DNA from: a virus
Lineage: Duplodnaviria; Heunggongvirae; Uroviricota; Caudoviricetes
Direction: 5' to 3' (one strand)
DNA: 15,995 nucleotides
Virus record (IMG/VR): IMGVR_UViG_3300048573_000051
Coordinates: 1-15,995 of that record
The position numbers and the translations under genes were made by a program. Positions 2,336 to 9,065 of this stretch are shown here, piece after piece (positions within the stretch are counted from its first letter, which is position 1; every line of letters starts with the position of its first letter). Below the pieces are notes generated by a model. That model was given only the letters and a program-made list of their open reading frames with translations, made no database searches and was not told where the DNA came from.

Positions 2336-2902
2336 TTATTGACCATGATTTTGTGTATAACCTAAACCTTGTAGATTCAGTTCTTTAATTTTTTGTTGAC
2401 GATAAAGACAAGCCTTGACTTGCGCTTCAAGAATACCATACTTAGATGCTGAAAAAGACTTAGTTCTCTTTAAACCTTGTGCGTCATACCATGTAGTCAC
2501 AAAAGTTACACAGCGATAATTTTTATGATCTAAATGAACTCCTGTAAAATTTGAGCTATTCTTTGAAGATTTTTTCCTATTTCTACAGTTCATTTCCGAA
2601 GGTATAATTCTAAGATTGGTCAAAGAGTTATCACTTGGGTTCCTATTAATATGGTCTACAACATAACCTTTTGGTATATTTCCAAATGCTAATGTATATA
2701 CAACATTGTGTAACGAATACTTACAACTTTTAAATTTTACTTTCCAATATTCATCTAGATAACCTGCATTATCACCTTTACTTGCGTATTTACGACCTAT
2801 GCCATTTCCCATAAAACGAGCAGTATTCCAAGATACACCACTGGGACTTTTATCATCTAAAGAAAAGAATAACGCTAATTCTTCAATATTGTATCTAGAC
2901 AT
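2336..2902 (-). CDS. Free-standing HNH homing endonuclease with AP2-like C-terminal DNA-binding domain
   Basis: LHNVVY...VVDHINRNPSDNSLTNLR HNH motif; FTGVH...FVTTWYD...KRTKSFSASKYG..EA AP2-like domain; ATG overlaps the phoH TAA at 2902. Confidence 0.85.
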   Translation of the reverse strand: MSRYNIEELALFFSLDDKSPSGVSWNTARFMGNGIGRKYASKGDNAGYLDEYWKVKFKSCKYSLHNVVYTLAFGNIPKGYVVDHINRNPSDNSLTNLRIIPSEMNCRNRKKSSKNSSNFTGVHLDHKNYRCVTFVTTWYDAQGLKRTKSFSASKYGILEAQVKACLYRQQKIKELNLQGLGYTQNHGQ

Positions 2903-4592: not shown

Positions 4593-5084
4593 ATGAACAT
4601 AATTGAATTGAAAGAAACTATTGATTATGATCTCTTCGCAGGAGCCTTCTATTTACTAAAGAACAACTGCAGATATAGAAGAATATTTCCAAACGAAGAT
4701 GGTTATATCATATTTTATAAAAATAGTAAAAGATTAAAATTTAAAGCTAATAAGTTAGCAATTGAGTTTGTGCAAAATATTGATGTGCAAAAAGATAAAG
4801 TAGTATTGCACAAAAACTTAGATGATACTGATTATAGATATATTAATTTAAAACTAATATCTAAGAAAGTGCATAACACAATTAAAGAAGCACATAGGAA
4901 TTTATCTGGTGCTTTAAAGCTCCAGCCTCATGCAAAGGATGTCTTCTCTTATGTTTTAACTTGGAAAGAAAACTCCAAAGATAAAATCTTAGTTGTGCAA
5001 GACATAGTAATAGCCAGAAGGTTATATACAAGGTTGCAACTCAAATATGCTAAGATTTTAAACAAGTTCTGTGTATTTGATTGA
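4593..5084 (+). CDS. Degenerate HNH-like protein (163 aa)
   Basis: ANKLAIEF...VVLHKNLDDTDYRYINLKLIS aligns by eye with the HNH pattern (AHRL..E...VDHINGD.TDNR.ENLRLV), with several conserved residues substituted. Confidence 0.6.
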   Translation: MNIIELKETIDYDLFAGAFYLLKNNCRYRRIFPNEDGYIIFYKNSKRLKFKANKLAIEFVQNIDVQKDKVVLHKNLDDTDYRYINLKLISKKVHNTIKEAHRNLSGALKLQPHAKDVFSYVLTWKENSKDKILVVQDIVIARRLYTRLQLKYAKILNKFCVFD

Positions 5085-5092
5085 TATTTCTC

Positions 5093-5121
5093 TTGAAATT
5101 TACGTATTCGTGTGCTATAAT
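5093..5121 (+). promoter_or_regulatory. sigma70 promoter upstream of candidate ncRNAs
   Basis: TTGAAA-17 nt-TATAAT with TGTGC extended -10; no plus-strand ORF follows until 5407. Confidence 0.85.
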
Positions 5122-5352: not shown

Positions 5353-5382
5353 TTGACAAAAGACATTACTTATGTCTATAAT
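5353..5382 (+). promoter_or_regulatory. sigma70 promoter of the tRNA cluster with an operator-like inverted repeat
   Basis: TTGACA-18 nt-TATAAT; AGACAT-N5-ATGTCT at 5361-5377. Confidence 0.8.
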
Positions 5383-5610: not shown

Positions 5611-5684
5611 AGCGGGTAAGGTGGTCACTACTGCAGTCTCATAAGCTCGCAGCATCACTGGTTCGAATCCAGTACCCGCTTCCA
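5611..5684 (+). tRNA. Atypical tRNA with CAT anticodon (Met/fMet-like; Ile2 not excluded)
   Basis: Acceptor AGCGGGT/ACCCGCT, T-arm ACTGG-TTCGAAT-CCAGT, loop CTCATAA, encoded CCA; shortened D-arm and bulged anticodon stem. Confidence 0.75.
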
Positions 5685-5691
5685 AATTTAA

Positions 5692-5766
5692 GCTACTATC
5701 GTCTATCGGTTAGGACATCTGGTTTTCATCCAGACAAGCGGAGTTCGATTCTCCGTAGTAGCTCCA
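5692..5766 (+). tRNA. tRNA-Glu(TTC)
   Basis: GCTACTA/TAGTAGC acceptor, TCTGG-TTTTCAT-CCAGA anticodon arm, TTCGATT T-loop, CCA. Confidence 0.93.
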
Positions 5767-5775
5767 GAGCAAAAT

Positions 5776-5918
5776 AATGGAACTGGTAGGATCATCCATT
5801 CAACGGTTGTTAGTGACGATGGGGGCTATCGGAACTTTCAAATAAACGTGTATTCCGCAACTACGTTAAAAGTTCGGCTGCTCAATCGCCAACGGAAAGA
5901 GCATAAGGTTACAGTTGG
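5776..5918 (+). ncRNA. Candidate pseudoknotted ncRNA between tRNA-Glu and tRNA-Asn
   Basis: Hairpins 5776-5800, 5817-5831, 5832-5875 (inner 5845-5867), 5879-5903; loop CCAAC (5889-5893) complementary to GTTGG (5914-5918). Confidence 0.5.
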
Positions 5919-5926
5919 ATAAATTT

Positions 5927-6002
5927 TGGCATATAGCTCAGTTGGTAGAGCGTGAAACTGTTAATTTCAATGTCCGTGGTTCGAGGCCACGTATGCCAGC
6001 CA
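5927..6002 (+). tRNA. tRNA-Asn(GTT)
   Basis: TGGCATA/TATGCCA acceptor, AGCTCAGTTGGTAGAGC D-arm, TGAAA-CTGTTAA-TTTCA, G73, CCA. Confidence 0.95.
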
Positions 6003-6008
6003 AATAGT

Positions 6009-6084
6009 GTATCTGTAGCTCAATTGGCAGAGCATTGGATTCCAAATCCAAGGGTTAGTGGTTCAAGTCCATTCGGGTACGCCA
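6009..6084 (+). tRNA. tRNA-Trp(CCA)
   Basis: GTATCTG/CGGGTAC acceptor, TTGGA-TTCCAAA-TCCAA, GGTTCAAGTCC, G73, CCA. Confidence 0.93.
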
Positions 6085-6089
6085 AATAT

Positions 6090-6180
6090 AGGTGATTGGT
6101 TGAGAGGCCGAAAACAGCGGATTGCTAATCCGTAGGGTAGTAATACTGCCCCGTGCGTTCGAATCGCACATCACCTGCCA
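6090..6180 (+). tRNA. tRNA-Ser(GCT)
   Basis: AGGTGAT/ATCACCT acceptor, GCGGA-TTGCTAA-TCCGT, long variable arm GGGTAG/CTGCCC, TTCGAAT, G73, CCA. Confidence 0.93.
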
Positions 6181-6186
6181 ATAAAA

Positions 6187-6262
6187 CTGAGTGTAGCCTA
6201 GATAGTCAGGCACTTGATTTGGGGTCAAGACCACGGGTATGCGAGTTACCCCATTCAGACCA
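6187..6262 (+). tRNA. tRNA-Pro(TGG) with non-canonical D/T loops
   Basis: CTGAGTG/CATTCAG acceptor, CTTGA-TTTGGGG-TCAAG, T-loop TGCGAGT, A73, CCA. Confidence 0.85.
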
Positions 6263-6319
6263 ATCTTTGTTCTCCATTTGCGAATGGCGAATGCGCTATA
6301 TTAGAATAGCAAATAATTA

Positions 6320-6405
6320 GGATACGTATACCGTTAAGGAGACGGTCTGGTCTGTAAAACCAGCGCCACATGGCTCGTATGGATCGTTACCATAAGTATC
6401 CACCA
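6320..6405 (+). tRNA. tRNA-Tyr(GTA) with atypical T-loop and D-stem
   Basis: GGATAC/GTATCC acceptor, CTGGT-CTGTAAA-ACCAG, variable arm GCC/GGC, T-loop ATCGTTA, A73, CCA. Confidence 0.85.
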
Positions 6406-6409
6406 TAAA

Positions 6410-6666
6410 CCGTTCGAGAGATAGCTTATGCTATTACGGGAAGTAGCAAGGGGTGCGACTTACGCTATAAGTTAAAACGCACACTTACATTAAAGAACTC
6501 TACCTTAGGGTCCGAAGTAGCCTCGGTTTTAGGCGTCCCACGAATCTGTTGCGTGGTAACACGGAGTTTAGAAGCTTCGGGTAAGCACCGCCAAGTGCTT
6601 ACGCAAAGGATACAGCGTACTCATCTGCGGTAGATACGAAAAGGCTACTCGGGAGTCGTAACCCGA
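6410..6666 (+). ncRNA. Candidate large structured RNA between tRNA-Tyr and terS
   Basis: Multiple hairpins; 7-nt loop AGTAGCC (6516-6522) exactly complementary to GGCTACT (6643-6649); no ORF-track entry. Confidence 0.6.
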
Positions 6667-6684
6667 ACTAACACAGGAGAATAT

Positions 6685-7026
6685 ATGTTCGAAAAAGGTA
6701 AATCAGGTAATCCAAACGGTCGTCCTAAACGGTCAGACACTTCGGATAAACCAACTAACCGTGAGCTAAAAGAGCGTGAATTAGTCATGCTACTACGTAA
6801 GATCAAACCTCACGTAGCTGAAGCTATTGTGCAAGCGGCTAACATCATGAAGAACGCAGAAGCCAGTCACCAAAACCAGTTAAAAGCTGCAACTATCCTT
6901 TTGGATAACTATCGCAGATTAACCTTGGACATGTACGATGGCGAAGAGCAAGCCGATGAAGCTGGCGTGGAAGTGCAGCAAAATAATGCAGCAATTTTTA
7001 GCTTGAAAGTTGTTAACGAAGATTGA
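6685..7026 (+). CDS. terS: Probable terminase small subunit
   Basis: N-terminal FEKGKSGNPNGRPK (DUF5681-type motif common in TerS), helical core, SD CAGGAG, position upstream of terL. Confidence 0.7.
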   Translation: MFEKGKSGNPNGRPKRSDTSDKPTNRELKERELVMLLRKIKPHVAEAIVQAANIMKNAEASHQNQLKAATILLDNYRRLTLDMYDGEEQADEAGVEVQQNNAAIFSLKVVNED

Positions 7027-7098: not shown

Positions 7099-7114
7099 TT
7101 CATTGGAGAATGAA

Positions 7115-7603
7115 ATGAAGAATTGCAAACGTTGTAATCAAGAGAAAGACTTATCTGAATTTTACAAAGCGAAAACATCTAAAGATGGTCATCAATCGCA
7201 CTGTAAAGACTGTCATAGTAAAACGAATAGTCAGAGATATTACGAAAAGCATGAAGAAAATCGTGCGCGACTTTCAAAGTATTATTTAGATAACCACGAA
7301 AAAGAAAAAGCTTCTCGTAGGGAGCACTATCAAAAGAACAAATCAACATATCTATTTAACTTTTATAAAAGAGAGTATAGATTAAAAGAGGCTACACCTA
7401 ACTGGTTAACTGCTGAAATGCTGTCTGAAATAAAAGACATTTACGCAAGAAGGCAGGAAATATCTAATGTAGCGGGTGTAGAACATCACGTAGATCACAT
7501 TGTACCAATTCAAGGCATTGATGTTTGCGGTTTGCACGTTCCTTGGAATCTTCAAATATTGACCGCAGAAGAAAACTTAAGGAAAAGTAATAAGTATGAG
7601 TGA
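7115..7603 (+). CDS. HNH endonuclease with N-terminal Zn finger (likely start ATG 7115 rather than TTG 7103)
   Basis: CKRC...CKDC; HHVDHIVP...VCGLHVPWNLQILTAEENLRKSN; GGAG at 7105-7108 lies 6 nt before ATG 7115; 8-nt overlap with terL. Confidence 0.88.
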   Translation: MKNCKRCNQEKDLSEFYKAKTSKDGHQSHCKDCHSKTNSQRYYEKHEENRARLSKYYLDNHEKEKASRREHYQKNKSTYLFNFYKREYRLKEATPNWLTAEMLSEIKDIYARRQEISNVAGVEHHVDHIVPIQGIDVCGLHVPWNLQILTAEENLRKSNKYE

Positions 7604-9065
7604 ACAAATAATTATCGGACCAGCAAGTAAAAAGCAAGAGTTATTTTTAAACAGCGATGCAACGATTACTTTAGCAGGGGGTGCTGCAGGTTCTGGTAAA
7701 ACTTATACTGCTCTTCTTATTGCACTTAAATTTATGCAAAATCCCAGAGCAACTGGAGTTATCTTTCGTAGAACTTCTAAGATGCTAACTGCTCCCGGAT
7801 CAATCTGGCATGAAGCTGTGCATTTGTACACTAGTATTTACCCTAATCTTAGGATTCGATCTAGAGAGCTTGAGTTAATTTTCCCAAATGGTGCATTACT
7901 TAAATTTAGTCACATGCAACATGCAACCAACGCCTTGGATCACAAAGGTGGTCAATACTCGTTGGTAATCTTTGACGAAGCAACAGACTTTGAAGAAGAG
8001 ATGGTCGTTTATTTGCTATCTCGTATGCGTAATGCTTACGTAGATTATAAACCGCAGATGTTTTTAATGACGAACCCCGACTACAATTCATTTTTAAGAG
8101 CTTGGTTAGAAGATTACTATCTAGACCCAAACACGGGTATTCCACTCCCTGAAAAAACAGGGCATAAACGTTATTTCTTTCGTCAAGGCAACACTATGCT
8201 TTGGTATAACAGTTTAGCCGAAGCTGAAGCAGCACATGGTGCAGGAGATGAGTCCGGTATTTCATCGTTTACATTCATTGGTGCAACCTGCCGTGATAAC
8301 CCTCCACTACTTAAAGCACAACCAGATTATATCAGCCGATTGATGTCCCTTCCTCGCGTAGAGAAAGAAAGACTACTTGATGGCTCATGGTTTGCTCGTC
8401 AAGAGTCCGCTGGTCTGTTTAAACGCGAGTGGGTCGGTCTTGTAGATCATGCGAACGGTAGAGCTAGAAAAAGAATTAGAGCTTGGGACTTTGCGTTTAG
8501 TAAACCCTCAGAGCAATATCCTAATCCTGACTGGTCACGAGGTGTTCTAATCTCTAAAGACCCGAACAATCTTTACACAGTAGAAGATGTAGTATCTTTG
8601 CGCGACAGAGTACACGAGGTAGAAAAGCTGGTTTTCGAAACTGCTCTTCGTGACGGTCAAGACGTAACTATCAGTATTCCATTGGACCCTGCTGCAGCCG
8701 CTGGAGCTTACGCTAAAGATTTACAGCGCAAGTTAGCTGAAATGGGTTTTCACGTAAGACTAACAAAACCTGTTAAGTCTAAGATTACTCGTTTTGCTCC
8801 TTTCTCAAGTATAGCACAAGCTGGATTCGTAAACGTAGTAAAAGCTAACTGGAATAAAGATTTCTTTGATGAACTAGAAGTGTTCGATGGTGATCCTAAA
8901 AAGAAAGATGACCAAGTTGATTGCTGCTCAGATGCAATGCTGTTGTTAAATAAAGATACTCAGCTACCAGTATTTTCACTACCAGATTTTACAGGTAGTA
9001 ACCCTTTCGATGGAAGCATCACAGGCTCCAATATTCCTACATTTCAAAGTTCATTAGTTTCATAA
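7596..9065 (+). CDS. terL: Terminase large subunit
   Basis: Walker A GGAAGSGKT, Walker B LVIFDEAT, MTNP coupling motif, RNase H-like nuclease AWDFA...DDQVD. Confidence 0.95.
   Translation: MSEQIIIGPASKKQELFLNSDATITLAGGAAGSGKTYTALLIALKFMQNPRATGVIFRRTSKMLTAPGSIWHEAVHLYTSIYPNLRIRSRELELIFPNGALLKFSHMQHATNALDHKGGQYSLVIFDEATDFEEEMVVYLLSRMRNAYVDYKPQMFLMTNPDYNSFLRAWLEDYYLDPNTGIPLPEKTGHKRYFFRQGNTMLWYNSLAEAEAAHGAGDESGISSFTFIGATCRDNPPLLKAQPDYISRLMSLPRVEKERLLDGSWFARQESAGLFKREWVGLVDHANGRARKRIRAWDFAFSKPSEQYPNPDWSRGVLISKDPNNLYTVEDVVSLRDRVHEVEKLVFETALRDGQDVTISIPLDPAAAAGAYAKDLQRKLAEMGFHVRLTKPVKSKITRFAPFSSIAQAGFVNVVKANWNKDFFDELEVFDGDPKKKDDQVDCCSDAMLLLNKDTQLPVFSLPDFTGSNPFDGSITGSNIPTFQSSLVS

Follow-up and report, generated by a model that had tools for sequence, protein, structure and literature searches.

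The window analysed here is a 15,995-nucleotide (nt) piece of a 59-kb IMG/VR phage record. Comparison with related phages shows that positions 6496-6674 of its + strand, immediately ahead of a terS-like gene, encode a conserved, pseudoknotted folded RNA of about 180 nt, which scores 185 bits with our covariance model R1. The family to which this core RNA belongs is previously undescribed and unannotated, and it is wide among uncultured phages. With somewhat better than even confidence we read the core as an autonomous, processed and stable noncoding RNA (ncRNA), an analogue of the species 1 and species 2 RNAs of phage T4. It is probably neither a terS switch nor a packaging RNA.

Covariation and fold of the core RNA

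Folding energy does not set the stretch apart. The z-scores are not above chance (+ strand, -0.77; - strand, -1.17), and with neither strand significant we rejected energy as evidence for structure. An Rfam scan of positions 6263-6684 matched no known family at the gathering score or at E values up to 10. Since the energy is unremarkable and Rfam gives no match, the question was settled by comparing relatives.

Searching IMG/VR with the terS-like protein yielded 41 loci carrying a true homologue. Their terS-upstream regions align over about 180 nt immediately 5' of terS and are variable farther upstream. We aligned 23 distinct sequences with MAFFT in an unbiased way (A3) and scored the alignment against eight helices drawn by hand. 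Standard pairs make up 96.2% of the 865 cells, falling to 33-40% when the 3' partners are slid by 1-3 columns, and double-sided changes occur at 29 of 40 pairs (3-11 when slid). None of 500 shuffles reached the observed pairing and covariation values, and RNAalifold independently returned the same local helices.

The alignment also assigns a strand. Read on the + strand, 96.2% of cells are paired, against 88.6% on the - strand, and there are 70 G-U cells as opposed to four A-C cells. The pairing therefore belongs to the + strand. This fits an RNA co-transcribed with transfer RNAs (tRNAs) and terS, and it speaks against a site in duplex DNA. A pac or cos signal read by the terminase at the DNA level would be well placed directly 5' of terS, but the G-U to A-C asymmetry and the compensatory changes indicate pairing in RNA.

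The fold is compact, with seven helices (P1-P7), and all of its elements lie on the + strand. At the 5' end, P1 (6497-6500/6508-6511) has a covarying stem and a 7-nt loop, UACCUUA, that is nearly invariant in the family. P2 (6512-6517/6521-6526) carries one A-C mismatch in the window and is a 6-7-bp stem with a tiny loop in relatives. J2/3 (6527-6537) carries the invariant GGCGUCC (6532-6538), and about half of the relatives have an extra covarying hairpin, P2a, inserted in it. P3 (6538-6542/6552-6556) presents loop bases 6546-6549 as the 5' strand of the pseudoknot and is followed by J3/4 (6557-6561, UAACA). P4 (6562-6567/6574-6579) shows double changes at all six of its pairs. P5 (6581-6588/6595-6602) is an 8-bp hairpin with the loop CGCCAA, of which GCCAA is conserved. 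In L023 and L027 an extra hairpin of about 27 nt sits in this loop just 5' of the retained GCCAA, indicating that the loop tolerates insertion.

J5/6 (6603-6629) contains the 3' pseudoknot strand. P6 (6630-6633/6645-6648) has double changes at four of four pairs in A3, an additional covarying pair at 6635/6642 and the loop ACGAAA. P7 (6649-6653/6662-6666) follows with zero bases in between, and its loop ends in a conserved GUAA. The 3' tail ACUAA (6667-6671) is common, not universal; some relatives have a U-run or a terminator instead.

Several further contacts were considered and set aside. A T-loop or GNRA reading of the P6 and P7 loops does not fit the covarying pair 6635/6642. RNAalifold proposed a closing pairing (UUAG/CUAA) from the P1 loop to the 3' tail; this is not claimed, and neither are contacts between the P1 and P5 loops or between GGCG and CGCC, as the partners are either invariant or uncompensated.

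A mutual-information scan and direct reading of the sequences pointed to a pairing partner for the P3 loop in J5/6, namely the 4-5 nt that precede a conserved CGU. The window has CUGU (6546-6549) matched by ACAG (6612-6615), which abuts the CGU on its 5' side. Relatives carry eight versions of this pairing: CUGU/ACAG, CUGA/UCAG, UUGU/ACAA, CAUA/UAUG, CUAA/UUAG, GUAA/UUAC, UUUG/UAGA and UUAU/GUAA, the last two making use of G-U pairs. Of 17 distinct combinations of a P3 loop with its own J segment, 13 fit; the other four have variant architectures and are mis-aligned by the model. In a cross-class control, the loop fits the segment of another class in only 33 of 250 cases (13%). The anchor rule was set after the pattern had been seen, so this evidence is strong but post-hoc. 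We conclude from these compensating versions that the P3 loop forms an H-type pseudoknot with the stretch preceding the conserved CGU.

This fold differs in part from the one first proposed. Every complementarity that the sequence-only reading listed is there in the window. Confirmed were the hairpins at 6410-6439, 6453-6482, 6512-6526, 6538-6556, 6581-6602 and 6650-6665, the complementarity of AGTAGCC (6516-6522) to GGCTACT (6643-6649) and of AACTC (6496-6500) to GAGTT (6564-6568), the copies of GAAGTAGC at 6440 and 6514, and the 8-nt gap from the last hairpin to AGGAG (6675). Among relatives, most of the local hairpins held up and the long-range pairings did not. P2, P3, P5 and P7 are conserved and covary, whereas the hairpin proposed at 6616-6638 found no support, its 3' part being the 5' strand of P6. 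The covarying helices P1 (6497-6511), P4 (6562-6579) and P6 (6630-6648) had been absent from the proposal.

The 7-bp long-range pseudoknot is not conserved, GGCTAC (6643-6648) being the 3' strand of the covarying P6, and AGTAGCC, which had been taken for a whole loop, lies mostly within the P2 stem in relatives. The supposed loop reads AGTCACC in L004 (terS 92% identical), its partner being unchanged, so that two of the seven pairs are broken. The AACTC/GAGTT pairing is likewise unconserved: GAGTT is the 5' strand of P4, and ACTC that of P1. As for the two GAAGTAGC sites thought to compete for one partner, the second copy is peculiar to the window, whose P2 departs from the common form. The long-range pairings are thus unconserved and clash with the covarying P1, P2, P4 and P6; judged across the alignment, the 7-bp pseudoknot and the two-site switch are therefore chance features of one sequence.

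The structured core is real, but the idea of a single multi-domain RNA of about 260 nt did not survive, as its 5' part is separable. Compared across relatives, the stretch is two units, the conserved core and an optional module A (6408-6482, + strand) made up of the hairpins 6410-6439 and 6453-6482. In the window this module begins directly after a tRNA CCA, and wherever it is present it begins just after one. It is very uniform and shares an AAGAAC-like lead-in with the core RNA. The core is kept without module A in Limnohabitans phage DC31, L009, L023, L025 and others, while in L218 and L235 module A lies kilobases away from the core.

Extent of the family

The terS-linked relatives score 35-210 bits with R1. 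When IMG/VR was scanned with a strict DNA pattern for the 5' domain, 86 stretches matched; a first, looser pattern was dropped, having returned mostly chance matches. R1 recognized the RNA at E values of 0.001 or below in 63 of 79 newly fetched loci, and additional members (about 120 nt) have diverged too far for it. The family falls into size classes of about 100, 120, 137 and 170-200 nt. Common to these are P1 with the loop CCUUAG, P2, the optional P2a, GGCGUCCG, a short U-A-rich segment ending in AC, P6, and P7 with its loop ending in GUAA. The short forms (100-140 nt, n = 11) retain P1, P2, P6 and P7 with covariation: 94.9% of their cells are paired, against at most 44% when slid, and double changes are found at 11 of 20 pairs.

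The RNA is a single-copy element in the genomes counted. One copy was counted in each of the window record, DC31, a complete 163-kb T4-like genome, two 99-kb contigs and a contig of at least 208 kb; the range given for these records is from a 76-kb Pakpunavirus up to that contig. Two cultured phages carry the RNA, Limnohabitans phage DC31 and Curvibacter phage P26059A. No copy turned up in the terminase regions of Pseudomonas Pakpunavirus or Otagovirus.

Rfam at E values up to 1 left the RNA unmatched in six relatives. ARAGORN and Rfam reported no tRNA or transfer-messenger RNA (tmRNA) cloverleaf and no model match on 6406-6684, and blastn against GenBank phages matched neither the intergenic region nor two short-form members. 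A model search of 154 Burkholderiales-type genomes (three metagenome-assembled genomes and a 151-genome family sample) did not find the RNA. At least 120 matches to the DNA pattern in bacterial genomes were dismissed as chance matches in GC-rich DNA. As far as searched, these comparisons show the family to be restricted to phages. The literature searched contains no description of the RNA, which might be among the 10,006 unnamed viral candidates of one catalogue (PMC10690425).

Genomic contexts and the role of the RNA

The RNA occurs in varied neighbourhoods. In the T4-like phages L107, L217, L219, L206 and L208 it lies between regA and hsp20, and the T4 late-promoter box TATAAATA stands 6 nt 5' of it in L207, L216, L217, L225 and L276. 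In L204, L240 and L264 it follows an endonuclease gene and precedes a tail-fibre gene. Among the downstream genes are a 96-amino-acid (aa) open reading frame (ORF) with a tail fibre, and a regulator-like gene. An HNH gene sits between the RNA and terS in L005, L006, L175 and L194. L211 has a 12-bp intrinsic terminator 1 nt 3' of the RNA and then a new promoter, and L257 has an intrinsic terminator 3 nt 3' of it.

Association with tRNA genes recurs in the family. The RNA lies inside a tRNA array in L210, L256, L209, L245, L257 and L270, where a tRNA-Asp ends 0-7 nt before it and the next tRNA follows 12-81 nt after. Among 62 distinct members, at least nine begin no more than 12 nt from the 3' end of an ARAGORN-called tRNA, with a CCA spacing of -2 to 8 nt. 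Most members do not adjoin a tRNA, and 42 of the 62 have tRNAs somewhere in the fetched locus. In L243, the complete 163-kb T4-like genome, a permuted two-piece tmRNA (936-1237, - strand; RF04321, 89.8 bits) is encoded 310 nt upstream of the RNA.

We infer autonomy from the diversity of these neighbourhoods, the embedding in tRNA arrays, the promoters and terminators that some members have of their own, and the insertions that are tolerated, as well as from loops conserved across phage lineages with unrelated proteins. Among the roles offered by the sequence-only reading, an independent ncRNA is thus the one favoured: the family covaries, is single-copy, spans unrelated phages and neighbourhoods and occurs in tRNA arrays, and some members have their own terminator or late promoter. 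Comparative evidence of this kind points to a gene product that would be excised with the tRNAs and act via its invariant loops.

In the window, the RNA would be transcribed with the tRNA array from two sigma-70-type consensus promoters on the + strand, at 5093-5121 (11 of 12 positions, with TG) and 5353-5382 (12 of 12), both 5' of the array. No terminator-like site was found on the + strand between these promoters and terS. The host ribonucleases (RNases) that mature the flanking tRNAs would cut the RNA out of the polycistronic transcript, and the excised RNA would persist and act on its own as a stable RNA. Most likely, the invariant CCUUAG, GGCGUCC, GCCAA, ACGAAA and GUAA would be presented to a conserved protein or RNA partner. 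On this account the RNA precedes terS because the tRNA array ends there and not for the purpose of switching terS.

We also looked for mimicry of the 3' domain of 16S ribosomal RNA (rRNA), suggested by a 9-mer in common and by ACCUUA and GGUAAC. The local alignment scored 20, no better than the mean of shuffled sequences (19.8 +/- 2), and one shared 9-mer is expected by chance; the idea was rejected.

A number of observations weigh against an autonomous RNA. Complements of the conserved loops are not enriched in the window, and the search for a partner or target came up empty. Whenever it is not part of a tRNA array, the RNA points the same way as an ORF starting within about 5-200 nt. In the window clade P7 ends 8 nt before the Shine-Dalgarno sequence (SD) with no terminator between, so that the RNA is physically the 5' leader of terS. 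A terS-like (phrog_3900) gene lies downstream in the window clade, L226 and L251, which belong to three different size classes. L018 (1799-1876) and L021, which have the same sequence there, carry, after a complete RNA and before the terS SD, a second P7-like hairpin and ACUAA tail. In L037 the additional hairpin upstream of terS is a different one, and a second GGACUAA tail comes after it. These duplicated 3' ends may be recombination scars or a sign that the 3' end has a role in cis. Finally, that the RNA is stable, is excised and acts in trans are all properties that we infer.

The same observations are what a cis-acting 5' leader or 'punctuation' element would predict, in which the RNA stays on the downstream mRNA, here that of terS and the packaging and head genes, and controls its stability, processing or translation. 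It might do so by protecting the 5' end against RNase E, by placing a processing site at the ACUAA tail or by serving as a landing site for a phage protein near the SD. The nearness and co-orientation of a downstream ORF in most members, the window RNA lying 8 nt from the SD, the recurrence before terS-like genes, the second 3'-end copies beside the SD in L018, L021 and L037, and the position of T4-like members between a late promoter and hsp20 all favour it. We regard a cis leader as unlikely, if still a serious contender, as tRNA arrays enclose some members that have no ORF downstream, terminators come right after the RNA in L211 and L257 (followed in L211 by the new promoter), and HNH genes are tolerated between RNA and terS. 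The downstream genes are moreover mutually unrelated, and the conserved fold leaves the SD untouched.

The T4-like relatives offer a candidate for separate control of the downstream gene, which also counts against a leader role: a weak ROSE_3 match falls between the RNA and hsp20 in L219 (3609-3667, + strand), scoring 24.3 bits (E 0.87) where the gathering score is 43. No ROSE_3 match overlaps the RNA, and the window has none. The segment in L219 and its equivalents in L107, L217 and L225 contain a UUCG hairpin and a conserved ribosome-binding region with UUGCU. The region before the phage hsp20 may thus be an RNA thermometer or the gene's own leader element.

The proposed translational switch has lost both of its supports, the 7-bp pseudoknot and the competing GAAGTAGC sites, which are unconserved and clash with covarying helices. 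A cis role on terS may still be exerted by some other means. A further explanation is sensing of a ligand or signal, with the conserved core as the aptamer of a riboswitch controlling the downstream gene. The highly conserved junction nucleotides, the pseudoknot, the variable 3' context (ACUAA and SD, U-run or terminator) and the position upstream of, and co-oriented with, genes would suit a riboswitch. It seems improbable all the same. Known riboswitch aptamer models in Rfam are unmatched in the window and the relatives searched, and no theme unites the downstream genes (terS, hsp20, tail-fibre operon, regulator, tRNAs). Where a terminator follows, it has no obvious alternative pairing with the RNA, and the conserved core includes P7, the helix that adjoins the SD.

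Self-processing would account for the proximity to tRNAs in another way. By analogy with theta ribozymes, the RNA could cut near its own 5' (or 3') end and so separate the tRNA array from the downstream RNA. Theta ribozymes, hepatitis delta virus (HDV)-like RNAs of gut phages, lie directly at tRNA 3' ends, 58% being tRNA-associated and the rest isolated (PMC10879173), and they are a precedent for the position of our family, whose members in several independent lineages start 0-8 nt past a tRNA CCA. Many invariant unpaired nucleotides together with a pseudoknot in an RNA of 100-190 nt would also fit a catalytic core. However, theta ribozymes are minimal HDV folds that cleave within 1 nt of the tRNA end, whereas the window RNA has another fold and the CCA spacing in the family seems variable, with most members away from a tRNA. 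The HDV type is a nested double pseudoknot in which P1 encloses P3; the fold here is a row of local hairpins, and the window's P1 is one of them, with its 7-nt loop. Rfam ribozyme families, the HDV type among them, are unmatched, and new self-cleaving classes are rare a priori. We consider a ribozyme a poor bet, if marginally less so than a riboswitch.

A broader version of this idea, that the family is a new catalytic or defence-countering RNA class of diverse freshwater phages, is quite unlikely. Its members might be self-processing ribozymes that punctuate the transcripts of tRNA arrays, or folded decoys that neutralise a host factor directed against the tRNAs of phage or host. The GUAA at the end of the P7 loop resembles the anticodon loop of tRNA-Tyr, and the RNA often abuts tRNA-Tyr or tRNA-Asp.

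A packaging role, the most speculative proposal of the sequence-only reading, took the packaging RNA (pRNA) of phi29 as its precedent for loop-loop pairing. The location directly 5' of terS and the length of about 180 nt, like that of the phi29 RNA, speak for it. The pRNA model is unmatched in the window. A pRNA-dependent motor would be expected in a phage without a small terminase, whereas the window phage has the ordinary terS-like, TerL and portal genes, and the family is also found far from packaging genes, in T4-like replication modules and tRNA arrays. A pRNA ring would call for two loops with covarying complementarity; here the P1 and P5 loops are complementary over 4-5 nt in some members only, and this is uncompensated where P1 varies between A and G. 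A phi29-like packaging RNA, or a pac or cos site, is accordingly scarcely credible.

Known phage RNAs and gene neighbours

The closest parallel to the autonomous RNA that we favour is found in T4. Species 1 and 2 (rnaC and rnaD; 139 and 119 nt) are same-strand, non-tRNA RNAs that end a phage tRNA array, as the core RNA does here. They begin 2-7 nt after the preceding RNA gene, and the T4 array holds a homing endonuclease gene. Both are without known function (PMC4933390). They are not homologous to our family: an R1 search of the T4 tRNA region gives only a 10-bit local hairpin in rnaC. The T-arm-like hairpin in which rnaC ends has no counterpart in the window RNA, and our family differs from both T4 RNAs in having a pseudoknot and a much wider distribution.

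Other structured phage RNAs are more distant. GOLLD and ROOL are ncRNAs without known function that often occur near tRNA genes in phages and prophages (PMC5737381). They measure about 600-800 nt, against 100-200 nt here, have no Rfam match in our sequences, and differ in hosts and habitats. The cabRNA of staphylococcal phages is a structured RNA from the phage terminase region (PMC10686824). Compared by description alone, the window RNA differs in being intergenic and in occurring in other contexts as well.

Small stable RNAs of phage tRNA clusters have been known since the 1970s, when T4 species 1 and 2 were found, and none has a known function. The family offers a good entry point to them, with its heavy covariation, well-supported pseudoknot, many invariant unpaired bases and single-copy spread over unrelated lineages. 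Since the cultured phages DC31 and P26059A carry the RNA, this old question can be tested directly, and the RNA could be entered in Rfam as a new family. Annotators should take the long 'empty' stretch ahead of terS in these phages for an RNA gene and not for a terS regulatory switch or pac site.

The window phage is Pakpunavirus-like, with Limnohabitans phage DC31 as its closest cultured relative. Its TerL is 93% identical to that of DC31, a freshwater Pakpunavirus, and about 50% identical to that of Curvibacter phage P26059A. The tRNA array (5611-6262, + strand) encodes tRNAs for Glu, Asn, Trp, Ser and Pro and includes a sub-threshold tRNA-like sequence at 5611-5681. This scores 25.8 bits against a cut-off of 29, and DC31 has a tRNA-Thr at the same place. 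An unannotated 160-nt gap between tRNA-Glu and tRNA-Asn (5767-5926, + strand) may hold further RNAs.

The 422-nt gap between the array and the terS-like gene contains no ORF. Reading the sequence, with the position indicated by relatives, we found in it an 86-nt tRNA-Tyr(GUA)-like gene (6320-6405, + strand) that both ARAGORN and Rfam missed. It has a long variable arm and an encoded CCA at its end. Its T loop, AUCGUUA, is non-canonical, and positions 54 and 58 look swapped. In its place DC31 and L004 have a canonical tRNA-Tyr, and L005, L020, L028 and L035 have the same odd T loop.

Downstream of the core RNA, the SD AGGAG (6675-6679, + strand) precedes the start codon at 6685 of the terS-like gene (6685-7026, + strand; 113 aa, DUF5681, phrog_3900). 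An HNH gene, TerL and the portal gene follow in this order on the + strand. The window encodes three HNH endonucleases within 5.3 kb: 2336-2902 (- strand), 4593-5084 (+ strand) and 7103-7603 (+ strand). The one between terS and TerL is not present in DC31, where terS and TerL are spaced 10 nt apart, and relatives have HNH insertions at other junctions around the RNA. TerL itself (7596-9065, + strand; 489 aa) matches phrog_979 (E 1e-157) from profile position 146 onward, leaving the first 145 or so profile positions without a counterpart in the window protein.

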